From contig NMRA01000721.1 in assembly GCA_002633005.1 (NCBI GenBank), forward strand, positions 84,745-148,744: DNA of 64,000 nucleotides, in the 5' to 3' direction. Shown here one piece after another: positions 487 to 61,738 of the stretch. Each line of letters starts with the position of its first letter. Within the stretch, counting starts at the first letter, position 1. Below the pieces are notes generated by a model. It was not told the origin of the DNA. It worked only from the letters and a program-made list of their open reading frames with translations, and did not search any database. Source of the stretch: Phoronis australis (lineage: Eukaryota; Animalia; Phoronida). The translations under genes and the position numbers were made by a program.

Positions 487-1118
487 CAAAACATCACCGT
501 TTCAAATTACTGTCAGAATGTAATTTTACCTTACTAATAGCCGTTCATTCAATTGACGTTTTGTCGAAACACACGTTTGTGTACCATTCTTTGGACTCAA
601 AACCTGGTTATAAACTATAATTAATATAAAACGTTTCTTGTCGGCAATGTGCACGTGTTACTCTGGTGTCTTACGTTATACCATTACGTCTACGTCGTTC
701 TGATATTTGGTCTCTGAAAAGTCACCACTGCACATTAATACGAGTGCTTTTACCTTGGAACCCTGTCCATATTGGTGAAATTTTTGATGATACCGACTTG
801 AACATGGCAGCAGATTGCTGTTAGCATAAATAACTTAAAGTACGTTGATAACCACTATGGCATAATTATTTCAGCCCTTCATCAGGAAATTTACAGTATA
901 TTACATAGCCATGTGAGCTGGCAATCCCAAATTGGTTGGATTATTAGAGCTTGCTGTCAAGAATTGACATGGGATTTGGCGGTAATAGGCAGTGCGGACC
1001 AAAGCAAATGCGGTTCGACGTGTTTTGTAGATAGTGTATAGAACTGTTTCACCATATTACAGTTTGACGATGTATTCGTCTTTGTAGCGTAGGCTTTTTT
1101 CCAACAATGTTCTAAGAG

Positions 1119-1338
1119 TCACTCGAATTTCGGTGGGGTCTGAGAGTATTGAATTTTTATCCGGCAAGTCACGCATATTCCCTGACAATGGAGGTTGGCT
1201 CTACCTTTCGTTTTGTCATGCACTGCTTGCGCTAACAACGGCTGATCTACAAATTCAATTTTTAGGTGCCCGGATACTGCATTTGGCGGTACTCTAAGCT
1301 GAACCTCTTTCCACAAGATATTGCTCCATCAATAGTTG
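1119..1338 (-). pseudogene. Truncated, frameshifted paralogue of the ZU5-like exon at 29069-29913
   Basis: Same acceptor context (tttctatccctatag|CAACTATTGATGGAGCA). KEVQLRVPPNAVSGHLKIEFVDQPLLAQAVHDKTKGRANLHCQGICVTC aligns with KGVQLKVPPNAISGNIEIEFVDQLLLARAVHYDTQGRANLHSQRLCMTC. About 10 bp are deleted near 1320, shifting the frame; similarity ends and a stop follows at 1119. Confidence 0.85.
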
Positions 1339-1696
1339 CTATAGGGATAGAAATGATATCCGTTAGTTAGAATTGGAACGACGGCCAATTCAATTCATGG
1401 GTTTCTTATTTATTAGATCTTATCAGCAATCGCCTCAATGTGGAGACTTCGACACACGTTGTCTTGGTATTTTTGAGTTTGCGCTGTCAGTAACAATCAG
1501 GACGGGAAGGAAACCCCGCCTTCAATAAATCGTACTCAATGGCGCGTGAACAAATAACAATAATATAACAAATATCTCCATTAAACAAACATGGCGATGA
1601 TACCATAATGATGACGTATCACTGTCCCCTTACATGTGCATGTCAATAACTTGTGAAAGCCTGTAAATGCACGTCATCGACCGACGATAAAAATAC

Positions 1697-18601: not shown

Positions 18602-18682
18602 TGTGTGTGAGTGTGTGTGTGTGTGTGTGTGGTTGTGTGTGTGTCTGTGTCTGTGTGTGTGTGTCTGTGTGTGCATGTGTGT
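18602..18682. repeat. (GT)n microsatellite, imperfect
   Basis: Directly visible. Confidence 0.95.
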
Positions 18683-21392
18683 TTTATTTCATTTTGAAAT
18701 TAGAAATGCCAATCTTTGTGGTAGATTGTCATTTTAAAGAAACACCGCCGGGATTTTCAATTACCAGAAAAGCTTTAAAAACGATGGAGATGCCTACACC
18801 CATATTTGCAGCTACCGCTTCATTTTTTGATAACATATTCCGCAAATTTGCGTCCATGCGGTATTAGGTGCTGTATTCGAAATTGTGAAAAATTCACAAA
18901 AAAGACTCCAATTAGTAAAACAGCAAGATTATCACACAAATACCGTCAACAATTTCTTAGAATTATACACTAATCATCCGAAAATCTTCTTGAATTCTAC
19001 CTTTAAGAATTTCTTCATGCTTTCGACAGTTGATTCGTCGACATTGCCTTTACGTCCACATACGTCGTAAGCGGTTTCTCCATTCTGTAACAAAAACATT
19101 GAATGAAAGACGAAGATCACATCAAATGACCACACATGTGTATTGATCTTACGTAGACATGAACATACTACTGTCTGCTTTTTGTGAAATTATTGGTAGC
19201 AGTTAAATGGAGGGACTCGACTTTATATATTTCGTCAATGGCTCGTGGTGATGCTGGGTTACACGAAGGTTTGCTATGGAACATAATGTATCGTATGATT
19301 GGTGTAATGTTTTAATCAAGGCAAGGTTAGTACGGGAATGACAGTAAAATTATGATGAACCCTAGTGGTGGTTTAGAACGCACATGACTGTACACTGGTG
19401 ATGCTGGGTTACACGAAGGTTTGCTATGGAACATAATGTATCGTATGATTGGTGTAATGTTTTAATCAAGGCACTGTTAGTACGAGAATGACAGTAAAAT
19501 GATGATGAACCCTAGTGGTGGGTTACACGAAGGAGTGGTGTAGAACGTACAATGTACATGTACACTGGTGATGCTGGGTTACAAGGAGTGCTGTAGAACA
19601 TAGAGTGTACAGTGTACACGCGATGAGGCTGGGTTACACGAAAGAGTGGTGTAGAACATACAGTGTACAGTGTACACGCGATGAGGCTGGGTTACACGAA
19701 GGAATGGTGTAGAACATACAGTGCACACTGGTGATGCTGGGTTACAAGGAGTGCTGTAGAACATACAGTGTACAGTGTACACTCGATGAGGCTGGGTTAC
19801 ACGAAGGAGTGGTGTAGAACATACATGTACAGTGTACTCTGGTGATACTGCGTTACACGAGGGAGTGGTGTAGAAACATACAGCACAGTGTACATGTGGA
19901 GATGCTGGGTTACACGAAGGTTTGCTGCCGAACATAATGTACCGTATGATTGATGTAATGTATTTAACAAAGCACGGCAAGAACGAGACTGAACCCATGA
20001 GATTGTGACANTGGTTGTGTGTGTGTCTGTGTCTGTGTGTGTGTGTCTGTGTGTGCATGTGTGTTTTATTTCATTTTGAAATTAGAAATGCCAATCTTTG
20101 TGGTAGATTGTCATTTTAAAGAAACACCGCCGGGATTTTCAATTACCAGAAAAGCTTTAAAAACGATGGAGATGCCTACACCCATATTTGCAGCTACCGC
20201 TTCATTTTTTGATAACATATTCCGCAAATTTGCGTCCATGCGGTATTAGGTGCTGTATTCGAAATTGTGAAAAATTCACAAAAAAGACTCCAATTAGTAA
20301 AACAGCAAGATTATCACACAAATACCGTCAACAATTTCTTAGAATTATACACTAATCATCCGAAAATCTTCTTGAATTCTACCTTTAAGAATTTCTTCAT
20401 GCTTTCGACAGTTGATTCGTCGACATTGCCTTTACGTCCACATACGTCGTAAGCGGTTTCTCCATTCTGTAACAAAAACATTGAATGAAAGACGAAGATC
20501 ACATCAAATGACCACACATGTGTATTGATCTTACGTAGACATGAACATACTACTGTCTGCTTTTTGTGAAATTATTGGTAGCAGTTAAATGGAGGGACTC
20601 GACTTTATATATTTCGTCAATGGCTCGTGGTGATGCTGGGTTACACGAAGGTTTGCTATGGAACATAATGTATCGTATGATTGGTGTAATGTTTTAATCA
20701 AGGCAAGGTTAGTACGGGAATGACAGTAAAATTATGATGAACCCTAGTGGTGGTTTAGAACGCACATGACTGTACACTGGTGATGCTGGGTTACACGAAG
20801 GTTTGCTATGGAACATAATGTATCGTATGATTGGTGTAATGTTTTAATCAAGGCACTGTTAGTACGAGAATGACAGTAAAATGATGATGAACCCTAGTGG
20901 TGGGTTACACGAAGGAGTGGTGTAGAACGTACAATGTACATGTACACTGGTGATGCTGGGTTACAAGGAGTGCTGTAGAACATAGAGTGTACAGTGTACA
21001 CGCGATGAGGCTGGGTTACACGAAAGAGTGGTGTAGAACATACAGTGTACAGTGTACACGCGATGAGGCTGGGTTACACGAAGGAATGGTGTAGAACATA
21101 CAGTGCACACTGGTGATGCTGGGTTACAAGGAGTGCTGTAGAACATACAGTGTACAGTGTACACTCGATGAGGCTGGGTTACACGAAGGAGTGGTGTAGA
21201 ACATACATGTACAGTGTACTCTGGTGATACTGCGTTACACGAGGGAGTGGTGTAGAAACATACAGCACAGTGTACATGTGGAGATGCTGGGTTACACGAA
21301 GGTTTGCTGCCGAACATAATGTACCGTATGATTGATGTAATGTATTTAACAAAGCACGGCAAGAACGAGACTGAACCCATGAGATTGTGACA
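18630..21392. repeat. Apparently exact 1381-bp tandem duplication (18630-20010 = 20012-21392) joined by a single n; probable assembly artefact
   Basis: Identical ORF translations at offset 1382; the junction is the n at 20011. Confidence 0.9.
19245..19935. repeat. About 50-58 bp minisatellite (GGTGATGCTGGGTTACACGAAGGAGTGGTGTAGAACATACAGTGTACACT); also at 20627-21317 and 33940-34245
   Basis: Directly visible repeated units. Confidence 0.92.
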
Positions 21393-27118: not shown

Positions 27119-27558
27119 AATTTTGTGTCAGATTTTATCTTGCCACTTTTTACCCACATCGGTGCAAAGCTGTATATTTATATACAGCTTTGTACCAAGG
27201 CTAAAGTCTACTATACCCGGGTAGTCAATGGCTGTCTGAAATTTCGGGGTTAACGGAGCTCAATACACAGTGGTACGATAGTCTTAAACTGTAAATTGCA
27301 AGGTCTAAGTATGTTAAATTGTAATAATATTTTCAACATATTGTTAGTTGGATATATCTTCTTCCAATTATCATGTTATTGTGTCTGTAGTTACGTTAAA
27401 AAGCGAAAATTAAAAAAAATCCGCGAAAAGTTGACCTTTGACACCGTGACATGGTGTTGGGGAACACAAACTAGATCAATATCCCACAATGCAGTTTACC
27501 GCCCATACAAAACAGTGGAAGACGAACAAGGAGCGTTCAATCTTGGCATGATTTAGAC

Positions 27559-27805
27559 ATGGTACATCGGTGTGTGTGCGCCAACTGTGCTAACACCAGC
27601 CAGGTGGAAGGCGTGACCCTATTTAGGTTTCCCAAAGACAAGCATCTGGCCGCGAAATGGCACGTTTTCGTGTGCACTGCTCGTCATTGTAAAATGACTG
27701 TCGAGTCGGCCAGTCTGTCGGAGCCGAAATATGCTCCGACCACTTTGAGGACGGCTGCTTCGACGACAAACATATCATGAAGTTTGAAGCTGGTCTTGTG
27801 AAAAG
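27559..27805 (+). pseudogene. THAP zinc-finger (C2CH) first exon with one frameshift, probably from a DNA transposon
   Basis: MVHRCVCANCANTSQVEGVTLFRFPKDKHLAAKWHVFV then, in a shifted frame, GAEICSDHFEDGCFDDKHIMKFEAGLVKR followed by a gtaag donor. Contains the THAP hallmarks CxxxxC, FP, W and CSxHF. Confidence 0.8.
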
Positions 27806-29068
27806 GTAAGTTATCTTCATAATTTATGGCTTATATCCATGACGCTTTCTCAGTGCTTGAACTATAACGATCTTTTTTCGCAATCACCATAGTTCTCGCG
27901 GTCAACAATTGCTGAGTGTTGCCGGTGGTATTTCTTTGGAATGTTGCCCAGTAGGCTATTTGTTGATTCAACTGTTCTTGGNTTAGGGCTGTCCAACCGA
28001 TATTTTTTGGATTTGCAAAAATACTTGAATATATTCGGAAAGATAATGCATCCCACTCAATGTAATTTGAAAAAAATATCAAAATCGGTTTAAGCTGTGC
28101 ACATTTAGTGCAATTTTGGTGGCGAAATTTGGGTCGTTTGTTTGGATCTGCTTGGCCATCCTGGACAACAGCAGCATAAGTTACGAGTTTAACACCGTGC
28201 ATAATTTATTTTCACCAGCAATTTACGATGAAATTTAGTGAGACAGATCTATAACTACTATTCTGAGCGATTGAATAGTTTTCATTGGATTTCGGCCAAG
28301 CAGAAGTTACTTGTAGAGTGATAAAACTGCTCACAATTCCTGTTTTGGACTTCGTCTCATTTCCGGCGGCACCGACAGCATGGTGACTTCTGCTGAACAG
28401 AAGGGCATGTTCACTAGCTTCTCGTTTAATTCACCCGATTACATAACATCGCCGTAACTCAAAGTACATCGTATACCAAAGACGCACTACCCTCCCAAAC
28501 GTGAAGCATTCATCGATGCGCGTGCAAAAGAGGAGTCAAATCTTCAAAAACATCCCATTCAAACTAGCAAGTATTCATCAGACAGGCGAGAGGAATACTC
28601 CTGTTTCGTCACACAATATAAGCACACAACATGGACAACTAAATCGGATTCATACCCAGGCGGAAATGTCAGGTATTTTAGACAAAAATGTTATAGCAAA
28701 CGGGAGGTCTACAGCGTCGCAGATTCTTGACGGTCAGCGGGTCCGCTTCATCGTGAGCATCAAAGAAAGTATAGCGTGTGTTGTATTGCATTTGTTCCAA
28801 TCAACAACTTGTATTTTATGCAACATAGAATTGTTGGATTAAAACGGGGAATTGACAAACTGCACGAGTCCCGGCGGATCAAATACCTTTAGTTTGGATC
28901 GGAGAGTACCGTTAGACGAATGGTTATTTTTCATTGACGTCATTGTCAATTCATTCCCTTACAGCCACTGTAACAGAAACGCGGACACCTGATTCATACT
29001 CCAATACACCACATGCAACATGCAGTCCAACACACACAGACAACAAGTTATACAGGTACTGTACTTAC

Positions 29069-29913
29069 ATGAACCTTCACAGGCCTGTCCATCAGGGTTT
29101 CCTTGTAGATTAATTCCTTCACAAACAGTCGAACCTTGTGACCCGTAAGTGCACGAACTTTAGCTTCAGTCATCTCAAAAACTGTACATGCTCTTTCACA
29201 ATGATCCCTTTCAAGTTTAAACCCTTTAGAGGAAATTTGTTTCTTTTTGTCATCCTCAATGCTCCAGCAAACAATTCCAAACAACAACGTGGCGCTATTT
29301 ATCAAACGCATTTTGTAACATGTACACTCGTGTTCAATGTCATCAGTACACTCCACGTCCACGCCATGACAAAATAGTTTAACTATCAACCCTCCATCTT
29401 GTCTTTTTTTTATGTACGGGCATATCCTGCACATGTATGACACTTCGAGTATATGTTTGATGGTCGTAAACACGCCAGTAGCGATAGGTGATGTGAAATC
29501 TGCCAGCCAAGCAATACTAACCATTAAACATGTTTTACAGTAGAAGATTATTTCCTCCAATGCCATGCTGACATTGCAATCTTCAGTAACGTCAGTCACT
29601 TCACCATCTTTTTCATGCAATATGCGAAAGTCTTCGCTCTTTAGTCGTTGATCATCCACTTTTCCCAACATTGCTGCCACAGTCACTCGCACTTCGACTG
29701 GCTCCGAGAATGTTACATCTCCATCTGTGCAGGTCATGCATAATCTCTGAGAATGGAGGTTAGCTCTGCCTTGGGTGTCGTAATGCACTGCCCGTGCTAA
29801 CAACAACTGATCTACAAACTCAATTTCTATGTTCCCGGATATTGCATTTGGTGGTACTTTGAGTTGAACCCCTTTGTACCCAAAAACTCCACCGTCTGCT
29901 CCATCAATAGTTG
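29069..29913 (-). CDS. 845-bp exon encoding a ZU5-like domain plus a possible UPA-like beta region
   Basis: ctatccctatag acceptor, open for 281 codons, CAT|gtaagt donor (or read-through to the stop at 29048). The pattern GGVFGYKGVQLKVPPNAI...VTFSEPVEVRV...FRILHEKDGEVTDVT resembles ZU5 domains (GG-GV.L.VPP.A, F..PV.I, D.T). The domain call is by eye. Confidence 0.75.
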
Positions 29914-30660: not shown

Positions 30661-33600
30661 TGTACCAAGTCACAACAAACTTTTTTACAGCTTTTAAAAT
30701 TGTTCAGTACATGTACTACATCTCTAATACCAGAATATTTAACATGACACGTGTAAGTTAGACAGCCACTAAAATTCTAAATGGAAGTTTATCTACCATT
30801 TCTATACTTAGTTTTAATCTGGACAAGTGGACAAAGATAACAACAGTTTACAATAAACGCAAACGTATGACAATAAATGCAACAAAAACCTGTTTCGTTA
30901 TGCACTATCCTTTCTAACAACTATGGCCTTCTCACTGCATTTCAAGGAATCAGTTGCTACCTGGGTGTTGGTGAAATTAAGGGCTATTGGGAACGTACAG
31001 TAACCTATGGCAACCGGGAGAGGCACTGCAGTTCTACCACGCCTAAATTTGGACAAAGATTTATAATGTGCAAATGAACACCCCGCCTTTTGTTTTTGTA
31101 GGAAGGTATATTTTGATGCTAAACTACAAGGTAGGAGAGACAACTTCGAAGACGCTTCCTAATAACAAGAATTGCCTTGACTCTTTGCAAAGACGCAAAT
31201 TTTAACTAATTTACCCACTCAAGTAATAAATTAAAGGACAAAACCTTTCTATATAGTAATTGTACTTTTTTCACTGACTTGTGAAACAGTGACCAAAATA
31301 TGGAGGAAACTGATCGGGAATTTCCTTGGCTACCGACCACCCGCATTTCAAGTCTATTAGGCTACAGACAGGAAACTTACACTGGCCCTGTTTTCAGTAA
31401 ATCATCCACGCACGTTAAGTTCTCAACAAAGAAAATTCCTCATCAACTCAAAATATTGAGTTCTTCACCTCAATTTCAGAAACGGGCACGCGTGCTTTTT
31501 AGATAGCCCCCCCCCACCAGAGCACCGGAGTCTCCCAAATTACCCTTAAATGTGACGTTCAATCCTTGATATAAACAACACAATGGTGATTTCAAGCCTT
31601 AGACAGTCTAACTTCTTCAGAGTATGGGATATATCCGCTTGCAATATTCAAGATGAACAACTCTCACTTAACATCCCCATGAAGATTTTACAAGTTTTAC
31701 AGTGCCATGCCTCTTTAAGGTCCAGCAGTACTCTAGAAAAGTGTCCAACTTTATCTACCGCCGCATCTCATCTCAAAAATAAATGACCATATCAATACAA
31801 AACTTCACACATCATGCTTTGTCCATTGCTCTCACAAATTTGGATTAAGAAGTGTTTCTAAATGTCAACAGTTTAGTATGAGGGATTAACAAATATACAA
31901 GTAGGACTCAAAAGATTGTTTGAAATGAACACGGAAAAGTAACTTAGAGAACTTTAAACAGGGTTCATCACATTAGTCAGTGGTGTTGATACGAATGTGT
32001 ATTTTTGCTTCACTGTATTCATAATTGAACATTCCAATTTCACCAAAAAAAATAGTTTGTTCAGTGATGACCACATTTCTACTGTAGGCCAGGCCCCTAA
32101 ACTGCCGGCTAGACTTCTGAAACACTTTTAATTCAGGAACGTAATTTTGCAAAGTCTTGACTTTTTCGAGAGAAACTAGGTATACAAAACGCATTCCAAG
32201 TAAACGTCAGGAAGGGGAGACAGGTTCACGCTATGAACACTCAATCCTTCTTACCAGTTGGCGGTGTAGCAGTTTCCGCTCTTCCGAACAGCTTTTCCTG
32301 AAACGAAACAAAATTCAACGCACAAAAATAGTTAATAGTACAGTAGCATCTCTTCAAAGTAAATCAATTAACTTGAGCAACAAAATACCTAGGGAAGATC
32401 TCGAAATTACCATGTATGGATTTATGCTTTGCGACATCACTGACATTTTCCTCGCTGATAAATTATTTTATTGCTTCTAATAACTATTGTATTTACCGAC
32501 ATAATAAACAATATGTAGAAGTCCAGACTGGTTTGCATTGAAATTTATTCCTTTTAAATACATTAAAATAGCACTTTTAAATTTCAAATAGCTGAAGAAC
32601 AGAGGAATTTCCATTTGGAAGCCTCGGTGCTGCAATGCAATAGATTTTGGTGATTTGTTTTTTTATCATGTAAAAATGAAGTGATATGTAGGCTGAAATA
32701 AGCATGGATTAAACACTATTCTGCCCTCCGCAGAGTAGGCGTGTCCACCAATTGAGTGAAATCAATTGAAAAGTCTTTTGACCTAATGACTTTGTGGAAG
32801 TTAGCACGTACGCAGAGGGAGAATACCTGAGTAGTTACCAGTATTTTTCAAAATGATTGACATTTTTTAAATCAAAACAGCTTACAAAGTAAAGGAGAAA
32901 CTACAGTCAAGATATTAGAAAGAGGGGCAAACACTGGAATACTAAAATTTGAGAACCGGTAGAAATAATGTGGAATATACTAGAGCTCGACTCATTGGTT
33001 TACGGGTAAATCTACGCGGTGACCACTACGTTTCCAAGTGTATATTTTCACGGTCAAAAGCATTCATTGACAACACGGAACTACTACAGTGTAGTTTACA
33101 CGTTTAGTGGTATTACACAGAACAAGCAAATCGTAAAACAACAATATGTAATTACAAACAAAAAGGTAGCGTAATGTGTGTGTCTGTTCGTGTACGTACG
33201 TGGGAGTGGGTGTGGGTGTTAGTGTGCATGTTTGTGTTATTTCATCTTGAAATTAGAAATGTCATTTTAGAGAAAGTCCCAAGGGATTTTTTATTTACCA
33301 GGTAAATCATAAAAACGATGGAAATGCCAACGCACAAATTTGCACCAACGGCTTCATTTTTGATCTGAAATTCCGCAACTTTGCGTTCATGCGGTATTAG
33401 ATGCTGTATTCAAAATTGTGAAAATTTCATAAAAACGACTCCATTTATTAAAACCTTAATATTATCACACAAATACTGTCAGCAATACTTTAGAATTATA
33501 CACTAATCACCCGATAATTTTCATGAATGCTACCTTAAGGAATTCCTTGATGTTTTCTGCATTTGATTTCTTGACCCCGCGTCCACGTCCACAAACGTCG

Positions 33601-33939
33601 TAAGCGGTTTCTCCAGCCTGCAACAAAATGTTTGAATGGAAGACGAATATTACGTAAAATTACAAGACCCGAGAATTGATCTTACATGTATGTAGACATG
33701 AACCTACTGCTACTTTCTGCTCTTTCTGAAATTATTGGCAGCAGAAATTGACTTTTAAATACTTCGTCAACCGCCGATGTAGTGCTAAAATGACCACTAC
33801 ATATTGAGTTATTAATGTCAATAGTTTATGCCAAATACCGATTCTTCCAAAACTGGCTGTTGCTTATTTTCATCAACACTTTTGTTGTGCTCATTAGAGA
33901 CTTGAGAGGAAGCAGAATCGTTGCCATGTAAGCATACAC

Positions 33940-39125: not shown

Positions 39126-39617
39126 NNNNNNNNNNNNNNNNNNNNNNNNNNNNNNNNNNNNNNNNNNNNNNNNNNNNNNNNNNNNNNNNNNNNNNNNNNN
39201 NNNNNNNNNNNNNNNNNNNNNNNNNNNNNNNNNNNNNNNNNNNNNNNNNNNNNNNNNNNNNNNNNNNNNNNNNNNNNNNNNNNNNNNNNNNNNNNNNNNN
39301 NNNNNNNNNNNNNNNNNNNNNNNNNNNNNNNNNNNNNNNNNNNNNNNNNNNNNNNNNNNNNNNNNNNNNNNNNNNNNNNNNNNNNNNNNNNNNNNNNNNN
39401 NNNNNNNNNNNNNNNNNNNNNNNNNNNNNNNNNNNNNNNNNNNNNNNNNNNNNNNNNNNNNNNNNNNNNNNNNNNNNNNNNNNNNNNNNNNNNNNNNNNN
39501 NNNNNNNNNNNNNNNNNNNNNNNNNNNNNNNNNNNNNNNNNNNNNNNNNNNNNNNNNNNNNNNNNNNNNNNNNNNNNNNNNNNNNNNNNNNNNNNNNNNN
39601 NNNNNNNNNNNNNNNNN
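39126..39617. other. Assembly gap (492 N)
   Basis: Run of N. Confidence 1.
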
Positions 39618-47270: not shown

Positions 47271-48767
47271 CGAAGCAGGCACCCATTCGTAATTAATCTA
47301 TTTTTCTGCAAGATATCCCGGCATAAATTTGAATTCTTTTAGCTTGAAGTTGGCAAACTTAAATAATTGTGTTGATATTATAAGGGTACAAAACGTGTCA
47401 CTTATAACAAACAGTCAGTATTCATCGCTTTGTTACTGCATGTGGCGATTATGAAGGGATTCCCAGAGCAAAATACACTGACATCACTGGCTTGCGCACA
47501 GAGCAGCAATAGCAGTTTGAATGAAAATGGCTTTCACCAACACGTTTCATGGCATATAAATAAATCAATGACGCTTCGATTAAATAACTGAAACTAAATA
47601 TGTACAGAAGTGGTTTTAAAGCAAGATGTAGGTCTTTTTGATGGAATAGTTTGTTGATAAATGAACAAATCCTCAAACTCAGAGTAGCGTGTGAGCACTA
47701 CCCACAAAACTGTAAAATCAGTTCCGAACATCAGGTGTATTCATTCTCCAATGTGGTGGACCTTGGATAAGTTCCTACATCATTTTGAAGTTACTGTTGT
47801 ACATTTTAAAAGCAGTACATTAGATTTTTGGACTGGTTAATGTATGTTTGACACATGAAACTTTTGATAACGTGGCCATCAACACAAATCACGTCCATAT
47901 CTATTCAAGTTGTTTCAAAAAGAAATCACGTACAACTCAAGCTCCGCATGGAAATGATGAAATACATCCTTATATCTTTAAAACATTCCGCAGCTAAACA
48001 ATAAAACTTGCTTACTTAGCAAAAAGACGAGAGATCAACGAGATGAAGCACGATGCCATATTTTTGAAACAAGTGAAGCAGACGACAGGTAAAAAGCACA
48101 GTACTGTTTCCGACAACAAAATTCACGCAAAAATCGTAAACAAACCAGCTTCAGTGTATACACAATTTAAAGCACCTGCGCATGTATACACAGACTTTGG
48201 ATTTACATGTATTGTGGATCACAGCTCGTTTTCTAAGTTCAGAGGGCTCGGCTTGGCACCGTGATAAAAGGACTTGTGCTTTCGACGGACTGCCCGGGGC
48301 TTTGCCTCAGTCACGCCCTAGATTTCAACATCATAGAATAGTAAATCCGACCATGGCAGGAACATACACGGTTGTGTGGTGAGGTTGAAATACATGTACA
48401 GTTAAGCCATGGGGTTAAAACACATGGATAAATTGATTGCTAAATTATCGTTATATTAAACTAGGCAAGACTAAAACCTTCCAAGATTTCCTTCCTAAAC
48501 GCGCATCTGATTCCTTGCAGTGAACCGATTAAAAACCTGCTTGTTTTATAATTAAAGTGAGAAAATCTGAACCTGTGGCTGTTGTCTGCCGGTGAAAGCG
48601 CGTTTGGTCTGTTTTTATTTTGTGCTGAATTATTACATTGTACGTAGGAGAGAGATCATTTTGACAAGGTATTTATTACGAATAAATAGTTTTACGAACT
48701 CATATTACATTTAAAACACATTTATTGCAGTCTCAACTATTCAAAGAGTGCAACACTCTTGCAATAC

Positions 48768-48869
48768 CTCGTTGACGGTATTGATGTCACATCCGCTTTC
48801 CCTGCACAGTAGTTTCACTACCTCTGTATGTCCACCTGCTGATGCCACGTGCAGCGGTGTGTCACCCGA
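48768..48869 (-). CDS. Ankyrin-repeat exon 6 (SGDTPLHVASAGGHTEVVKLLCRESGCDINTVNE), 102 bp, phase 0
   Basis: ttactgtag acceptor, gtattg donor, canonical G.TPLH.A...GH..VV..L motif. Confidence 0.92.
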
Positions 48870-49422
48870 CTACAGTAAGTGAACAAAAATAGATAATGTT
48901 GATCAGCATTATACAGTAGTGATGTGGGTGGGTGAAAAAGTCGTCGAGTTTTATACTTTGCCAGTTGAAACTTCAACATCAGTTGCAATACTGATGAAGG
49001 GTGTGACTCAACAGGACGAGACTAAAACCTGACATTTAAACTCAGAAAAAACTTGCGCGGGATTTTTTAAAATTCCTCTGATCTGATGTAGTGGTGATTG
49101 AAAAGAGTGTTTCAAATATAACAACTTGATCTCATACATTACAACAGATCGACATTCATTTAATGAGTGCTGTGGAAATGCAAGTAAAGAACCAAGTCAC
49201 TGTGCAAGTCTAGGTGAACTAAAAACTGTTTATAATTAGTTAAAGTCGCGTGCACGTCACGTCACGTGCGGTGGAATGCAACAAAAATGTCAATCTTTAA
49301 AATGAAATCATAAATCACGATTAATTAAATCATTGAATGATTCAGCCAAGTCACATGTTGTGTGTTCATCATCCTTATGTAAACAACTAGTTCAATTAAA
49401 CAACCTGTGTGTCATTACTTAC

Positions 49423-49521
49423 CTTATTACGTACATCTACACTGGCCTTGTTGGCCAACATCACCTTCACTGTGGCTGTATGACCATACCGTGCTGCCGT
49501 GTGCAGCGGTGTCCGGCCCCA
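49423..49521 (-). CDS. Ankyrin-repeat exon 5 (WGRTPLHTAARYGHTATVKVMLANKASVDVRNK), 99 bp, phase 0
   Basis: ttacatag acceptor, gtaagt donor, 33-aa ankyrin consensus. Confidence 0.95.
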
Positions 49522-49882
49522 CTATGTAATAAATAATGGAGATGTGTGAATGGACGATCAAAGTTTAGAGCTAATTAACATACACGGGGGAAATTGAACT
49601 TGTAAGGTGACATAAATGAAACATTACTGACCCCTCTAAGACGCCACAATACTTGACATGTAATGAATTCAAGAATCAAGTTTTACAGATTTTAAAACGT
49701 TACAGAACATGTTACAACTCTACGCAGCTTTGGTTCTTCACCAAGAAAAGCAGACGACATTGAACTTATTGATTTTGGACAATAAATTGTGAAAAATATC
49801 AACAAAATGTGTTCCTAAACATTTTAAACTATCCTTATGTTAACAACTAGTTCAACTAAACAACCAGTGTGTCATTACTTAC

Positions 49883-49981
49883 CTTATCACGTACATCTAC
49901 ACTGGCCTTGTTGGCCAACATCACCTCCACTGTGTCTGTATGACCCTCCCCTGCTGCCCAGTGCAGCGGTGTCCCGCCCCT
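49883..49981 (-). CDS. Ankyrin-repeat exon 4 (RGGTPLHWAAGEGHTDTVEVMLANKASVDVRDK), 99 bp, phase 0
   Basis: ttacacag acceptor, gtaagt donor. Confidence 0.95.
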
Positions 49982-50595
49982 CTGTGTAATATATAATGGA
50001 GATGTGTGAATGGACGATCAACGTTTAGAGCTAATTAACATACACGGGGGAAATTGAACTTGTAAGGTGACATAAATGCAACATTAATGACCCCTATAAG
50101 ACGCTACAATACTTGTAATGATTTCAAGAATCAACATGAGTGCTTCAGATTTTAAAACGTTGCTGTAACAACAGAACATGCTTTGGCCGTTCTACGCAAC
50201 TTTGGCAATTCACGAATGTAAAGCAGACGACATTCAATTTGTTGTGCTTTTGGGACATTAAATTGAGAAAAAGATCAAGGAAATGTGTCCCTAAACATTT
50301 TAAACTATCCTTATATAAACTATCCTTATATTAAACATTACTGACCCCTCTAAGACGCTACAATACTTGTAATGATTTTAAGAATCAAGTGTTACAGATT
50401 TTAAAACGATACAGAACATGTTACAACTCTACGCAGCTTTGGTTCTTCACCAAAAAAAGCAGACAACATTGAACTTGTCATTGTTTTTGGACAATAAATT
50501 GTGAAAAATATCAACAAAATATGTTCCTAAACAGTTTTAATCATCGTGTTTGTTAACAACGAGTTCAACTAAACAACATGTGTGTCATTACTTAC

Positions 50596-50694
50596 CTCAG
50601 TACGTACATCTACACTGGCCTTGTTGGCCAACAACTTCTTCACTATGTCTGTATGACCACCCTCTGCTGCCCAGTGCAGCGGTGTCTCGCTCGA
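50596..50694 (-). CDS. Ankyrin-repeat exon 3 (SSETPLHWAAEGGHTDIVKKLLANKASVDVRTE), 99 bp, phase 0
   Basis: ttacatag acceptor, gtaagt donor. Confidence 0.95.
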
Positions 50695-51051
50695 CTATGT
50701 AATATATAATGGAGATGTGTGAATGGACGATCAACGTTGAGAGCTAATTAACATACACGGGGGAAATTGAACTTGTAAGGTGACATAAATGCAACATTAC
50801 TGACCCCTCTAAGACGCTACAATACTTGTAATGAATTCAAGAATCAAGTTTTACAGATTTTAAAACGTTACAGAACATGTTACAACTCTACGCAGCTTTG
50901 GTTCTTCACCAAGAAAAGCAGACGACATTGAACTTTTTGTTTTTGGACAATAAATTGTGAAAAATATCAACAAAATGTGTTCCTAAACAGTTTTAATCAT
51001 CGTGTGTGTAAACAACTAGTTCAACTAAACAACCTGCGTGTCATTACTTAC

Positions 51052-51150
51052 CTTATCACGTACATCTACACTGGCCTTGTTGGCCAACATCACCTTCACT
51101 GTGTCTGTATGACCACGCCGTGCTGCCCTGTACAGCGGTGTCATGCCCAT
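51052..51150 (-). CDS. Ankyrin-repeat exon 2 (MGMTPLYRAARRGHTDTVKVMLANKASVDVRDK), 99 bp, phase 0
   Basis: ttacatag acceptor, gtaagt donor. Confidence 0.95.
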
Positions 51151-51722
51151 CTATGTAATATATAATGGAGATGTGTGAATGGACGATCAACGTTTAGAGC
51201 TAATTAACATACACGGGGAAAAGTGAACTTGTAATGTGACATGAATGAAACATTACTGACCCCTCTAAGACGCTACAATACTTGTAATGATTTCAAGAAC
51301 CAAGTGTTACAGATTTTAAAACGTTGCTGTATCAACATAACATGTTGTAGAATGTAGACGTCGATTGCCAGAAATTACAGAGTTCCTGCATAACTTGACA
51401 GCGATCCCGCCATGTTGTATTTCTTCACCGATTTTCTGGCTTCGTGTTTAATATAAAGTTGTAATGTTGAATGGACGATTGTCATTAAGAATAGAAAAGA
51501 GTCAACTTTAAGACCACAAATATATTGTTGACACAATTCAAACCTCGATGTTTCTTAAGATGCATGTACACAGTACAGATTGAAAAATACTTGTTGAAAT
51601 CATGAGATATGAAAAGTGTTTTTACACACAAAATATTTATTTAAACTTCAGATAGTCTACAGCTTTTGTAACAAAGATAACATTGTCTTAATTCTAATGT
51701 CGTCTCAAGTAGTTTCTATTAC

Positions 51723-51818
51723 CTTGTCTTGCACGTCTACATTGGCCCCACCCTGCACCAGCACCCTCACCACCTCCGACCTGCCCCTCTCTGCTGCTTT
51801 GTGAAGTGCTGTGCGGCC
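51723..51818 (-). CDS. Ankyrin-repeat exon 1 of those visible (GRTALHKAAERGRSEVVRVLVQGGANVDVQDK), 96 bp, phase 0
   Basis: ttgtttctgcag acceptor, gtaata donor, ankyrin consensus; the upstream start exon was not identified. Confidence 0.92.
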
Positions 51819-52469
51819 CTGCAGAAACAATGAACAAGTTATAGCAAAATTTACAATCACTAATTTCACTGTGAATCCTAATTACTTGTCATGCAAAGGT
51901 TGAAATACAATTGTATACAGAATTACCAAATTTATTCTCTGTTAACCGGGTAATATATTACTCGTGGTTGGAATAGATCATCATTTTAAAGAACAGTATA
52001 TCTACCCGAATACCTGCTGCGTGTATCAATTCAAAAACACGGTGAAACTAACTTAGAAATCCAGTTTCACTCCTCCCCCAGGTCCAAAATAGTTTCTAAC
52101 AAATTTAGGTCACTAACAAACAGGAATAGAATTAAGACAGAACACCAATACATGATTAAAATGATATTGGATTAGGTTATTATTAAAATACAACTGAAGT
52201 GTGAAGTAGTTTAAGGAAAATAACACAATTAAGCAATCCTTGGTATATGATGTGTTACTGGTTAAGAACAAGTACACAGAGAACAATTCAACTTGTTAAT
52301 GACAATGGTATTGAACAAATTGCTAAGTGAGAAAACGTCCTGGAACAGGACAAACTCTTCTCTACAAATTAAACACATTTTACCAAAACCATTCCTCTTA
52401 TCAAGATTGATGTTCAGCAAAGTCAATACATCACGTAATTCCCATTTTGCCAAAAAATGCAAACGCATT

Positions 52470-53753
52470 GTTCTGCTGTTCTGAGTCTCCAGACGTCGAG
52501 GCAGTGACCTGGCCAAGAGAACTGCTGCTTTTAAAAGAGCGCTTTGCCGGCCAGTTTTCGCGTGTACACGCGATAAATTGATACATTAACCTGTTCTTGA
52601 ATATATTTAAAGGGGCATTTCCTTATCGCGAGGAATCAATTAAAGAGACTATGACCATGACAAATATCATGAAACTGGTTGTATCTTGAGTTTTTTGACA
52701 CTCGTTTGACATTGTAAATATTGTAATTCGGCATGGACACCGTTTCCTATCTTGCATAAAAATACTGGCGCGATCGTTGATTTACCTTATTCAACATTTT
52801 ATTTTTGATATTCCGTAAAGAATGAAAAGTCAAAAATATACGGTGTCCAAGACTTTCATATTCTGTATGGAACGATCACGACCTTTTTATGACAAGCAAA
52901 CAAGGAATACAAAAAGGTCAACATCAACATCAGCTGCATTTTGATGTTACGCCTCTACTTGCCGACGGTCACTTGGACCCGACCGTTACTTGGATAGAAT
53001 ATAGAAAACAGACGTAAAAATAACGTGCAAAAATGCAAAATTATGTGTCATAGAGTCATATCCTCCATACCAAAAACAATGATAACATGTTGCACCGGTA
53101 AAACATTTGCCTTTTTGAAATGATCTAAATAAATCTTTTAAATTTCACTGTTTATTAAAATTACCCAAGAAGTACAATGCGTGGTGGTATATCAGTAAAC
53201 TTATAAAAGAGGCATGGAACGCGAATGTTTGGCAAATATATCTTTTAAAGAAATTGTCATGAAAGTAGAACCTCGCAACGTCTAATACAGAGGAATTCAT
53301 TTTCCTCTTGTTAATAAATTTACAGAAAAATCAAACATTTTACAATTTTTGAAATACGTTTTAAGAAAAAAAACTCTGTAGTCAAAACGCATTTTCTAGT
53401 CTCACTCCAACATATGATAAATGGGCTTATGCGCTCATAGTCAGTTCTTAGAAGTCGCTTGATGTCAACGACCAAATTTTCCATATTGTAACCTTGTCCA
53501 AAACCCCATTTAGAACGACTGCATGTCAAAAAACTCAAATTGAAGAATTATACCATTATGGTGATTGGCCATGGTCTCTTTAATTGGTTTATCGTGATAA
53601 GAAAATGCCCCTTTAAATATATTCAAGTACAGGCAAATGTATCACTTGATCGCGTGTACAAGTGAAAACTGTAGCCTATGTGAAATCGCTATTTTTAAAA
53701 TCAACTCTTCGTCTACCAGTGCCACGTAGTTTCAAGACGGATAAGAGCAGAAC
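52470..53753. mobile_element. MITE/foldback-like element with about 190-bp imperfect terminal inverted repeats
   Basis: ttgaatatatttaaaggggcattt (52597) pairs with aaatgcccctttaaatatattcaa (53603); tgtacacgcga pairs with tcgcgtgtaca; the internal segment 52830-53190 recurs at 55540-55870. Confidence 0.75.
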
Positions 53754-53824
53754 CCTGACCCTAACCCCGATCCCTAACCCCGAACCCTAACTCTGACCAT
53801 AACGACAACCACTACAAACATTAA

Positions 53825-56800
53825 ACCCTGCGACTCGAAACTTTGATCTGTTTACCACTTTTTAAACGCGTCTTGCAGATTTGAGTATCAATTTCAGAGA
53901 GTTAAAGGAGAGGTGGGTGCTTGCCAAAGCTATTGGCGCCTTATTGAAGATGTTCACGAGTTACAGGTGGCGATTTGTAGAGGACTTGGCGCTTGTTCCA
54001 ATAAATGTCGCGTCTGATTTGCAATAGTTGGCAACTCAAAACCAGTCTGCTGAAACACCAGTCATGGCTACCGTTCGGCTATGAGTGAGCCCAGTTTTGT
54101 AATCCAAGCGTTTGATGTTATTTGTGATCAAAAGAACCAATGAGACTCATGTTCAAACAGGCTGTTGCATGATATTTCCAAATCATGATCCTCAGCATTT
54201 ACGTCGACCGTGCGTTCAAACAACGGGACCTAGCAGTGTACAGTAGAAATGCGATGCTGTCTGGGATACTGTAATTGGATAATCTCAACATATTACATAA
54301 AAATAATACGTTTTCCCATCACATAGTTTGTTAAGTTAATCGTTAAAGAATTACTGGAAACGTCGATGTTTTGTGACCTGTGATCACGTGTTCTGTTGTG
54401 GTCCAGAACGTTTTTCGGCCCTTCTGAAAATTTGCAAAAGTATCCAAAAATACTGGTCAACAAAACGCGTCAAAGATGTATTCTGCACTATTTCATACTC
54501 ACACGTGACATGTGTGTTTACCACCAAGACATCAATGAGACTGTTCTCTGTTAGTGTTCTTTTGAACTTCATTTCGCAACAATTAAAAGATGGAAGGAGA
54601 AACGCGAATTGCTAGATGTTTGCCAGGTATCTGCCAGAAATGTACATATAAAAACTCACTAATTATATGTTGGAAACTCCAAGCGGCATATTGCAAGTTG
54701 ATACTGGTGGCCAAATCCTCAGGTTGCGTCAGACTTTGAGCCTGTGCAGTTTTATTATTGCAACATTCTAACGTGCAGAGAATATTAGCTAACTGTGACG
54801 ACGCAATTGTGGTTTTAAAATAGGGACGTTCTTGTCATGGTTGTGTGGCTGTCTTTTCAAATTTCATTGTCACTTGTTTGATGAAAGTGGGTCATGAAAT
54901 TAATCACTACGAGTGATTATCACCCTGCTGTAGGTACATGTAACTAGTGAACGCTCGGGTCTGGGAATCGTACTTGTAAAGTAAGAAGAAGCGATACGTT
55001 CCAATTCTTGACCTTTAACCCGATGCTCTGTTCTAATGGTTACTAATGTATTGTGAACTCAATATATATTTCTGAACACGATTAACACGATCAAAATGGC
55101 ATTGCTTGATTTAGTTCAGAAGCCATTTAAAGATCAAATATGTATCAGGTTTTGAACATTTCAGGGAAATGAAATTCAGTGTTGACGTGCAATTGAATGT
55201 TTAACTATTAACTTCCAAAATGTCTTTTATTAGAGGCTTGGAACCCGATAAACAAACTAACTTGAAATATTGGAAGTAATTCTCTACAACATGAACAGAA
55301 TTTAGCCTGCTCACCTGGTGTTCTTAGGGTTTGTTTGTAAATATGTTTAACTTCTGTTCATGTCAGAGCATTTTCTTTTATTTCCAAATTTCAAAAATGC
55401 CATATGTCAACACACAAGGCAAAGCACGTCTCCTTATTTGGAATGGCAGGACATCAATGTTGCAGAAATTTAAGATGATCGATATTCTACCCTAGGATGG
55501 TGTTTATAGATGGAAATGTTAAAAAATGAGGTCTCAAAGAATTTCACATGCAAAGGGAACATCACGATTTCTTTGATGACAAGCAAACACGGAGTACAAA
55601 AAATCTACGCCTTGAACATAAGCCGCACTTTGATGTTACGTCACGATTTGCGGACGGCCACTTGGACCACACGGTTAGTAAATGGACAAAATAAATAAAA
55701 CATACCTACAGGAAGAAAATAATGCGTAATACAACATGGCACCAATACCGAAAAGTATAATAACATGTTGAACCTTAAAACAACTGCCTGTTTGAAAAAT
55801 ATCTACTTGTAAATTAATTTTTAAAATTTCATCGTTTATGAAAAATCACCCGAGAAGTACAATGCGTCACATGAACATCTGTCCATATATTACTAGAAGA
55901 CAATTGGAAATCGATAATTAAATATGCATTTGGACGTCAACACTGTACTGCGTCTCACTACAATTATCAAAACCTGATACACAGTTAAGCATTAAAGATT
56001 CCGCAAGATACAAATTAAGCCACAGTCATTGTGTTCGTTTTTGGTGTGCCTGCATCTCCATCCCGCAAAAATATAAAACAAGAGCGTGAAGAAATATTGA
56101 GTTCATTAATTAACCGCCATAATGAACATACAGCTGAGACAATAGTCAAAAATAAGCGCAGGTCAAAAGTTGGTTGTACGTCTGAGACCGCCTGCACACT
56201 TTTTTAGTGGTTGGTTTTCAGTAGAAGGTTAGAATTCCGGTTTATCCTGGGTAAGTGCATGCAGTCGTGGTTGCATTTGCCCGAGACGAAATGTCACCCC
56301 CCTTATGATATCCTATATCTGCCACCGTATATCACTATATCTGCCATTCATTCTCGACACCTTACTATAGTACTACTGTACAGACCCAACTTTTCATGCG
56401 AGCTGAGATTTTGTCTACTCGTGTCAAGTCGCAATATGCGACTTGGAATTTTCAACATAACCGTACAGAGTTTTACATGTACACCTCTCGGCAAAAACAT
56501 GGCAAATATGAAGCAATTCATGTGGGTCCGACCATTATTTTGTTGTTGCCAAATTAAGTTCAAAAGGACACTAACAGAGAACGGAACTATAAATGTCTAA
56601 CATTTGTAAAAATACATGTATTGCAAAAACATGAAATAATGCGAAATGGATTTTTGACGCGTTTTGTTGAAACGTATTTTTGTATAATTTTGCAAATTTT
56701 CGGATGTGCCGAGGTATATTCCGGAGCACGAGATACAACGTCACAAAACGGTGACGTTTCCAATAATTCTGAAACGATCAACTTAACAAACTTTGTCTTG

Positions 56801-57560
56801 GAAAAAAACATATTATTTTTATGCTAATTGTCCTGATTATAAAATTATAATATCCCTAATCATGGGTGGTGCAGCACTGAAGAATGTGGGGGCTATAGCA
56901 GCCAGACCCCCTGAGGAGCACCGCCCGTAGTCCATGGGTGGCGAAGCACTGAAAACAGGGGGCTACTGCTACACCCCTCACCCCTATGATGCGAAGCCTA
57001 TGCAGATAGTAGATCCCATTGCGGCACAACTTAGTTTTGTTGTTTGTGCGCACGGTCGAGTCCTCGCAGCTATCATGATTCGGAATGTAAAGTAACGACC
57101 TCTTTGAACTCGCCTCCTGTTTTTTTTTTCGCAAAAGACAGAAAGCAAGTGAATTACAACCCTAAGTCCACTTATAGGAAAACGACCTCTTTTTCAGCTG
57201 ACAATTTTTCAGTTTGTACATGTACAGTAACTATTGCAACTTATTTTTTAAACAAGCAGACAAAAAATTTTCAGCAATCATTTTATTCTTCCATTCGCAC
57301 ACCATGCCAATTTTTTACTCCCCAGATCATGAGTCGACTATGTCACTGAAATATGGTGTTGCATCATTTCTTGCTTTGAAACGTTTTGTAACAAGCGCCC
57401 ACTGGTCTACTAATCGCCACTCTTAAGTTTTGACAAAATTCAATAAACCGCCAACTGCTCTGGCAAGCTCCCACCATTAATTTACCTCACTGGAATTGAT
57501 TTTCAACACTTCAAGATGCGTTTAATATGCGGTAACCGGACCAATGTTTCGAGTCGCAGT
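53825..57560. mobile_element. Large foldback-like element with long imperfect inverted arms (about 53825-54730 vs 56380-57560)
   Basis: ctgcgactcgaaac pairs with gtttcgagtcgcag; caacaaaacgcgtcaaa pairs with tttgacgcgttttgttg; ttctctgttagtgttcttttgaactt pairs with aagttcaaaaggacactaacagagaa. Confidence 0.7.
56861..57002. repeat. Two adjacent ~70-bp GC-rich hairpin units (CATGGGTGG...), tiny MITE-like insert
   Basis: catgggtggtgc...gcaccgcccgtag followed by catgggtggcgaagca...gcctatg. Confidence 0.5.
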
Positions 57561-58489
57561 GTAGTAAGTGTGTAATACACTGTAGTCCACGGAGACATTC
57601 TGTTACAAGCGACTGCGTGGTTTGAATTTGTCATCTACGCACTCTATAGTGGGTCACACACTGCTTTAGAACAAATTCCTTTTCAAAAAGAACCCCTCTT
57701 TTATCAATATTTAAAAGCAAATTTCCAGATTCGGTTCATGTCTCCGAAGGATTAGTAACCCCTGCGACATGCATGTTGGGATCAGGTGTCGTTTCGAGGT
57801 TAACCTATATTCTGCAAAATTATATGGCACGTACAGTGTATTCGGTCCCAAGGAGCAAAGTCGAATTACCCGGTAATGGGAAGCCGCTCGGATTGGATAT
57901 TATGTCGAAGCTCCAAGGGAATTCAATGGCAGTAGAGAAAAATACAGTTGCACCAAACAAATTTGGAATTACTAGACGACGCGGGTAAAATCATGATCTC
58001 AACATTTTCTCGACGGCCTAAAACATAATTTGGCACATTTGGTTAATTTTTGCAACCTGTATTCTTAACGGCTTGATGTGTGTCGTGAAATGCAGATATA
58101 AAACGAGTTATTATTAGTTTTGCCTTTGCCATGACCAAAATGTTAAGCATTGTCTAAAAATATGATTGCTTGGATAAATAAGTTTCGTAAACATACTGAA
58201 GCAATGATAAACAAAAACAAACAATAAGCAATGCTTCTTTTCATGTTATCCGCTGTATTATGCGCCTTACCACGGATAATTATTGTTTATTTTTGCATAA
58301 TTTCTTAATATGTTGGTACAGCATTAGAACAAAAGTTTATTTTAAGAACAACAGTAACAATGGCTTTAACATAGTGCAGAGATTAAGATCATGGGTGCAT
58401 GAAAACGGAAGAATGTGATCGGTTAAAGTGTGACACATGATCCATCATCATTCTGAATTTGTTGTCACTTTCAGAGTAAATTGTTTCCT

Positions 58490-60987: not shown

Positions 60988-61738
60988 AGGCTAATGCCAC
61001 CCGATTTAATTAGTCTTTTTGCCGTCTTAATCGGTCTATTTTCACATCGCCTCGAATACGGTCGACCTTATCTTGCCAAGAGGTGTCGCGTTAACCTGTG
61101 AAGAAGGTGAGAAACGACGCTAGCGACGTCTGTGGTTCATATGCAGAATGAATGCCGCTATGTTGCGGTGTATCGTTCCAGCTTGTCCGAACTAAGCAGC
61201 CGCGAGGAAAGCGAGTATATCGGGTTTTTTTTACTTCCTCGAGAGTTCGAAATGCTTAGGAAGTGGCTCATGGTAGTGAAGAATGAAATGTACGCTGTAA
61301 ATAGCAAGTATGAGGCCGTGAAACATCTCCGTGTCTGTGGCCTGCAGACGACGTCGACAGTGCCTCACGAATGCCCGGCTTACCAAATAACTCCATACGT
61401 TCCGTTGTCTGAGCTTGTTCACGGCGCCTCTCTAGTATTTCTTCATCACTGTATTCCTGTTCGAATTGATAGCCTGTAAAACTTAACGATCCACCTGCGA
61501 AGTCGGGACTGATGAGCCGCTCTAGCTCGCCCGAAGTCGGGATTGCGAGTTGCCATGTTTGGCGTTTATTACTGAGCGTTCTGTTTCAAAATGAATTATT
61601 CTCACCCTAACCAATACTTATATAAAACTGAAACAAAGTCTGTCTCATTAGATGCAATTTGTAATGCCTTTGGAGTGTCTGTGAGTGCACAAAATGATTT
61701 GAAAAGCCAGCAATGAATAAATCACTGCGTTACCGGCT
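60988..61738. mobile_element. Internally deleted Kolobok-like DNA transposon retaining degenerate 5' ends of two convergent genes
   Basis: TTAA|AG...CT|TTAG flanks. Plus strand carries a THAP remnant: MLRCIVPACPN* then, frameshifted, IGFFLLPREFEMLRKWLMVVKNE...HLRVCGL. Minus strand from ATG at 61556 carries a frameshifted GYQFEQEYSDEE/ILERRRE motif. Confidence 0.55.

Follow-up and report, generated by a model that had tools for sequence, protein, structure and literature searches.

Single-repeat ankyrin exons with hypervariable binding-face codons in Phoronis australis

The ankyrin exons and their duplicated units

The window analysed here, a stretch of 64,000 nucleotides of Phoronis australis DNA, is intron-rich, with a G+C content of about 38%, and contains six ankyrin exons, all intact and all on one strand. 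Four of these (U1-U4) were originally predicted to be 99-nt phase-0 exons lying inside duplicated exon-plus-intron units, and their coordinates, AG/GT ends and phase have been verified. A further ankyrin exon lies on either side of them.

51723..51818, minus strand: E0, 96-nt phase-0 ankyrin exon upstream of U1-U4, older; Pfam Ank match on an overlapping frame
51052..51150, minus strand: U1, 99-nt phase-0 exon encoding one ankyrin repeat; AG/GT ends, Pfam Ank match
50596..50694, minus strand: U2, 99-nt phase-0 exon encoding one ankyrin repeat, the most divergent unit; AG/GT ends, Pfam Ank match
49883..49981, minus strand: U3, 99-nt phase-0 exon encoding one ankyrin repeat, reference of the family-wide variant test; AG/GT ends, Pfam Ank match
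49423..49521, minus strand: U4, 99-nt phase-0 exon encoding one ankyrin repeat; AG/GT ends, Pfam Ank match
48768..48869, minus strand: E5, 102-nt phase-0 ankyrin exon downstream of U1-U4; Pfam Ank match
49362..51344, no strand assigned: tandem array of the exon-plus-intron units U1-U4, with pieces 85-92% identical and a mosaic phylogenetic signal

All six exon frames exceed the gathering score of Pfam Ank (PF00023), with 35-41 bits (35-39 bits for U1-U4 alone) against a cut-off of 21.1, and a profile built from the six found no seventh ankyrin exon within the 64-kb window. E0 and U3 are identical at 57 of 96 nucleotides. The uniform 456-bp unit that had been proposed is not present; the spacings between U1-U4 are 456, 713 and 460 nt, the longest of which includes a partial extra intron copy. 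The units were indeed duplicated together with their introns. Their flanks differ at 5-11 of 173 sites on the upstream side and at 3-5 of 41 on the downstream side, with indels in addition, and the homology of the region downstream of U4 to the other units stops about 50 nt past the exon. All three possible 2:2 groupings of U1-U4 are found along the unit alignment, as is expected under conversion or unequal exchange.

Two other features of the window may be recorded. Nested old inverted repeats lie upstream of the gene, at 53813-57574 and 52552-53671 (about 75% and 87% complementary), and there are THAP-domain frames on the plus strand at 27475-27780 (Pfam E=3.8e-5) and 61111-61479 (E=0.061), which are probably transposon-derived.

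Amino-acid hypervariability at binding-face codons

Among U1-U4, 14 of the 33 codons vary, and both this number and the codon states quoted in the original prediction are correct, as is the statement that changes fall nearly always at the first two codon positions: the minimum numbers of changes at positions 1, 2 and 3 are 14, 11 and 1, which places 25 of 26 at positions 1-2. The claimed absence of synonymous changes is also confirmed, none of the 13 fourfold-degenerate sites varying among the four exons. The flanking introns, with 25 changes in 214 columns, provide a neutral yardstick, relative to which the bias of the exons towards codon positions 1-2 is significant (Fisher p=4e-5). At the intron rate 2.75 synonymous changes are expected and none is observed, which is only borderline when taken alone (P=0.064); the signal is therefore the excess of amino-acid changes, of which there are 26 against 8.8 expected, about threefold more (P=2e-6). 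The six multi-state codons (1, 3, 8, 11, 12 and 32), which were chosen post hoc, carry 17 changes against 1.6 expected, and the other 27 codons are near expectation with 9 against 7.2. A codon model, with one parameter added, places omega at its upper bound of 50 (lnL -252.3 against -260.5 at omega=1; 2dL=16.4), an estimate that is rough because it comes from four recombined sequences of 33 codons and recombination can inflate omega.

It might be argued that these are young duplicated exons drifting without selection, or that the array is an assembly artefact, given that decayed paralogous pieces are present in the window's left half, as is a 1381-nt duplicate of 100% identity beside an N, and that few reads match this allele. 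Drift, however, predicts changes spread over all three codon positions at the intron rate, which is not the distribution described above. Assembly errors predict indels, whereas the frames and splice sites are intact and the same hot codons are found in independent samples. We regard either form of this explanation as very improbable.

Against the ankyrin consensus printed in PMC4308713, codons 1, 3, 8, 11 and 12 correspond to ankyrin positions 3, 5, 10, 13 and 14. That source describes the ANK-N5C library, in which positions 2, 3, 5, 10, 13 and 33 are randomised; these lie on the beta-turn and first helix and make up an unbroken surface for binding on the concave face, and codon 8, being position 10, is among them (PMC4308713). 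The proposal that the variable codons occupy ankyrin binding positions thus stands for codons 1, 3, 8, 11 and 12, but not for the multi-state codon 32, which is the consensus Asp (ankyrin position 1) and not an x position. Position 14 (codon 12) is one that we take to be an x position of the original DARPin design. The intron interrupts the beta-hairpin, between ankyrin positions 2 and 3, and each hairpin consists of codons 32-33 of one exon and codons 1-3 of the next.

Further copies were obtained from public sequencing runs deposited under the same species label. With the region 48600-52600 at 82% likeness there were 773 DNA contigs from one run and 1495, 1392 and 2057 RNA reads from three other samples. 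The test based on U3 (49853-50021, 85% likeness) drew on 176 and 109 contigs of DNA runs X1 and X2, which share one sample, and on 617 and 775 reads of RNA runs X5 and X7, which come from two other samples. It should be noted that the variant figures from this test refer to the best-supported 40 of 87 variant rows, and that the other 47, which are weaker, may hold silent changes. Within these best 40 rows 37 variants are exonic, and 21 of the 37 fall in codons 1, 3, 8, 11 and 12 (binomial p=7e-9 against 5/33); the pre-set test, which was run in part, was whether variation would become evenly spread with more copies, and it does not, being concentrated in five binding-face codons. Amino-acid changes account for 33 of the same 37 variants, the remaining 4 being silent in the U3 context (p=0.043). 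Again among the best 40 of 87 rows, the first and second positions of the hot codons mostly carry two alternative bases, and there is no variant at the third positions of 15 framework codons; those framework third positions that lie between hot codons have a coverage of 370-600 reads. For positions 1-2 of codons 1, 3, 8, 11 and 12, site heterozygosity averages at least 0.47-0.51. Codons 16, 20, 21 and 33 form a second tier of variability, and codon 32, at the edge of the alignment, is poorly sampled.

The two alternative bases at a single site are carried by up to 33 and 26 distinct contigs, and the summed depth is near 2000 compared with 16-51 for most of the listed contigs. This suggests a family of tens of related copies, a depth-based figure that does not give a copy number as such. 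The ‘library’ originally ascribed to the four exons is not made up of these alone, but is mainly a genomic multigene family. The amino-acid hypervariability at the binding-face codons is real and statistically strong, and is seen in independent samples.

A different origin for this variability would be a targeted mutator or templated process, be it deaminase-like, retroelement-like or somatic conversion from donor exons, that writes the variable codons within individuals. Such a process is compatible with the several alternative bases that one set of five codons shows at both position 1 and position 2, third positions there being nearly only G or T, and with the loop length variants in RNA (three of ten decoded junctions are one codon longer and one of ten is two codons shorter); contigs drop rare variants, so low-level somatic change could escape. 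It is disfavoured because no silent third position between the hot codons, those of four A-ending framework codons included, has a variant among the best 40 of 87 rows, and because the variants have similar frequencies in DNA contigs and in RNA and occur in the contigs at depths (16-83) typical of stable copies. Moreover, no reverse transcriptase or deaminase frame was found among the 113 minus-strand frames of at least 62 aa. We therefore consider a mutator improbable. RNA editing can be rejected, since the variants stand in DNA contigs too (from different individuals), as can an adenine-specific retroelement mechanism, since the A-ending framework codons are without variant among the best 40 of 87 rows.

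Transcription and the remainder of the gene

Minus-strand RNA, as judged from mate direction, covers all six ankyrin exons in three samples, and the exon types are transcribed, as the original prediction required. Depth peaks on each exon, including U1 (111-130, bin 51012-51145), U2 (60-105, bin 50610-50743), U4 (38-94, bin 49404-49537), E0 (51-76) and E5 (68-185, against 1-6 in the next bin), and is down to 0-2 in three inter-unit bins. Only 29 of 1495, 27 of 1392 and 6 of 2057 reads are at least 99% alike to the locus. Expression is therefore to be understood at the level of the family, and for the same reason the splice joints may derive from paralogs or other alleles.

Ten of the 15 joints listed for the U3 test run from the end of a U-type exon to the start of another, and these repeat-to-repeat joints are found in RNA only. 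The junctions that were decoded (10 of the 12 strings listed) give ten different loop strings, with the length differences already mentioned. Loose read ends indicate that U-type exons are preceded by E0-type exons or by a sister subfamily, and are followed by E5-type exons. A U1-like to E5-like joint is carried by 22, 13 and 1 reads, has mismatched letters at the joint and may come from paralogs with fewer units. The orders and numbers of repeats differ among reads, an observation at family level, the reads not being assignable to this locus. Varied repeat arrangements are thus present within the family, which is distinct from skipping at this locus. The suggestion that exons are shuffled or skipped in frame is upheld in so far as repeat exons are spliced together in varied orders across the family; for the locus itself, skipping, gain or loss is conjectural.

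Several additional transcript features were seen. Other repeat subfamilies with a framework of their own are spliced directly to U-type exons (RNA at 49853-50021), E5-type exons also occur in tandem in RNA reads, and about 120 and 95 reads at 49901-49944 represent a related transcript type of opposite mate strand. The E0-U1 intron (51146-51681) reaches an RNA depth of 155 in run X7, as a retained intron or a separate transcript in relatives.

For the start and the 3' part of the gene there are the following candidates.

52384..52392, minus strand: tentative candidate start from the splice-site scan, three codons then a phase-0 donor
33534..33617, minus strand: candidate cap exon, 84 nt, phase 0-0, reading as a capping half-repeat after E5; putative link
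32255..32297, minus strand: candidate linker exon, 43 nt, phase 0-1; putative link
29048..29913, minus strand: candidate terminal exon of about 287 codons in phase 1, with a weak likeness to ZU5 and the longest N-free ORF of the window

At the 5' end, two runs have 5 and 6 RNA molecules that terminate at 52522, and no joint from the candidate start to E0 is present among the joints listed. A 107-aa ORF at 52262-52585 was rejected as first exon; it has no Pfam match and is in the wrong phase for E0, and 20 of 33 and 10 of 21 reads lack 1 nt at 52452. Read-through of E5 leads after 8 codons to a stop and then to AATAAA (48744-48720, minus strand), which is a possible short ankyrin-only isoform, the RNA depth there being low (the 1-6 against 68-185 given above).

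The intron between E5 and the candidate cap exon would be 15.1 kb long and holds an N gap, and the cap exon by itself has no Pfam match. The match of the terminal exon to Pfam ZU5 (E about 0.024) is below the cut-off and no stronger than 12 apparent chance matches among 113 frames. Its ORF had no homolog among 2154 candidates from longer proteins, one spurious repetitive match only among 1.84 billion representatives and only chance alphaRep matches in the PDB; its single-sequence fold has a pLDDT of 32 and is unusable. There is no match to a UPA or death domain, and the splice link from E5 through 33617 and 32297 to the ZU5-like exon is absent from the reads. Both the identity of this exon and its joining to the ankyrin exons are accordingly uncertain. 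A splice-site scan at strict thresholds, below which some true exons score, yielded no additional phase-0 exon, either in the stretch from E5 to 33617 or in the DNA upstream of E0. Likewise, NACHT, NB-ARC, death-fold, kinase and RING domains gave no match above cut-off in the 113 minus-strand frames of at least 62 aa, a scan confined to the window and interrupted by the N gap at about 39126-39617.

Between 400 and 33700 the minus strand carries tandem copies, partly in decay, of what is putatively the 3' half of the gene; within the window they have no ankyrin exons of their own.

33617 and 19084, minus strand: copies of the cap exon
32297, 15509 and 23504, minus strand: copies of the linker exon
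9337, 7721, 2843 and 2454, minus strand: small phase 1-1 exons
near 1050-1340, minus strand: second ZU5-like exon, frameshifted

The 1381-nt duplicate, 18630-20010 and 20012-21392, is 100% identical, flanks a single N and is probably an assembly artefact.

Comparison with known systems and proposed function

Among fungal NLRs, Podospora Pa_3_8560 and Pa_2_8180 contain near-identical ankyrin repeats of the high-internal-conservation (HIC) type (Dyrka et al. 2014, PMC4986451; PMC13449251). According to the same sources, positive selection acts in such arrays on five positions, located on the concave face in the inner helix and beta-hairpin, and the arrays undergo repeat-number polymorphism and concerted evolution (PMC4986451; PMC13449251). 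The thresholds for HIC repeats are an internal similarity >85% across 100 aa (Dyrka 2014, PMC4986451) or Psim >=0.7 (PMC13449251); Psim for U1-U4 is 0.826 over 132 aa, which is above the 0.7 rule and just under 0.85. The Phoronis array shares with the fungal arrays a conserved ankyrin framework and positive selection at binding-face positions, but each of its repeats forms an exon of its own that was duplicated together with the introns, it occurs in an animal, and a NACHT or NB-ARC ATPase, by which NLR/STAND proteins are recognised, was not found within the scanned minus-strand frames. Hypervariable repeats apparently occur also in NLRs of animals, plants and bacteria (PMC13449251); for Metazoa, concerted evolution of immune repeats is a matter of speculation only in the accessible text of PMC5100051.

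The brown algal candidate receptors of the ROCO-LRR and NB-ARC-TPR types have one repeat per fixed-length phase-0 exon (Zambounis et al., PMC3341825; Teng et al. 2024, PMC11378527), and are described as subject to exon shuffling, diversifying selection and alternative splicing (PMC3341825; PMC11378527). The Phoronis exons resemble these in that each repeat is on one symmetric exon of fixed length, and differ in that the repeat is an ankyrin and not an LRR or TPR, there is no ROC-COR or NB-ARC domain, and no inverted or dead repeat exons are found in the window. The locus thus works like the fungal and brown algal systems, but is a member of neither, being without their ATPase/GTPase domains.

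With DARPins and ANK-N5C the array has in common that the 33-residue framework is fixed and residues of the concave face are free, and its top PDB matches are mostly DARPins. Unlike ANK-N5C it is natural, it varies most at positions 3, 5, 10, 13 and 14 and also in loop length, and position 33 is invariant in U1-U4 and position 2 varies less. In canonical ankyrins the ankyrin repeats are encoded on 99-nt exons. The Phoronis gene is similar to these and to ANK/ZU5/death-domain proteins in this respect, and possibly in a downstream ZU5, but has only six repeats plus a putative cap, which are young and hypervariable, with no death domain seen and a weak ZU5. When homologs of the four repeats were sought, the 120 of 185 matches listed were all generic ankyrins (best 66% identity), none with any of four family motifs, and no report of an animal one-repeat-per-exon hypervariable ankyrin family was found in the literature searched, chiefly titles and abstracts with few subscription journals.

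We give a probability of about two in three to the reading that U1-U4 are interchangeable middle repeats of an ankyrin gene belonging to a large expressed family, under selection for new binding to intracellular proteins that are probably foreign (from a pathogen or parasite). The binding-face residues outpace the introns and silent sites, likely because of selection for new binding specificities. Unequal crossing-over and gene conversion between near-identical introns would copy, delete and reorder units with the reading frame unbroken, and the same exchange would keep the repeat framework uniform; ordinary point mutations on the binding face are proposed to be favoured and for that reason to evade the homogenisation. 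As the intron lies inside the beta-hairpin, each new exon pairing would, we propose, create its own hairpin tip. Inheritance, and not generation cell by cell, would be the source of the repertoire, whose product is predicted to be a cytoplasmic protein, possibly with a ZU5-like module at the end. The original idea of a rapidly diversifying recognition module is strengthened to the extent that diversifying amino-acid change at the binding-face codons extends to many more copies and that the family is transcribed and spliced. A bolder version, which we would rate as a long shot, is a natural DARPin system in which each individual recombines, or combinatorially splices, hypervariable ankyrin exons drawn from a pool of tens to hundreds; with hairpin tips spanning the junctions, this would give an intracellular anticipatory receptor repertoire based on ankyrin and not on Ig or LRR.

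The same diversifying selection could be directed at a non-microbial target: it might serve allorecognition or the recognition of gametes, or reflect an arms race against proteins of the animal's own transposons. The sequence signature cannot separate these classes of target, fungal arrays of such a kind are functionally known from allorecognition according to the accessible text of PMC13449251, and expression occurs in all three of three RNA samples. On the other hand, a multicopy family with tens of variants per genome would fit a pathogen-sensing repertoire better than recognition at one locus, and we think a non-microbial target unlikely.

Diversified recognition families of invertebrates are few, and mostly based on Ig, lectin or LRR domains. 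The Phoronis family is likely to act as a quickly evolving set of binding proteins, probably directed at the recognition of foreign targets. As such, this expressed family would have arrived independently at the design of engineered DARPins, a framework with a free face, and its modular exons would let specificity be reshuffled in frame. It may show which positions evolution uses for ankyrin binders, position 10 and loop length included. It would extend the fungal and brown algal pattern, and offers a concrete candidate for intracellular non-self sensing in an animal.
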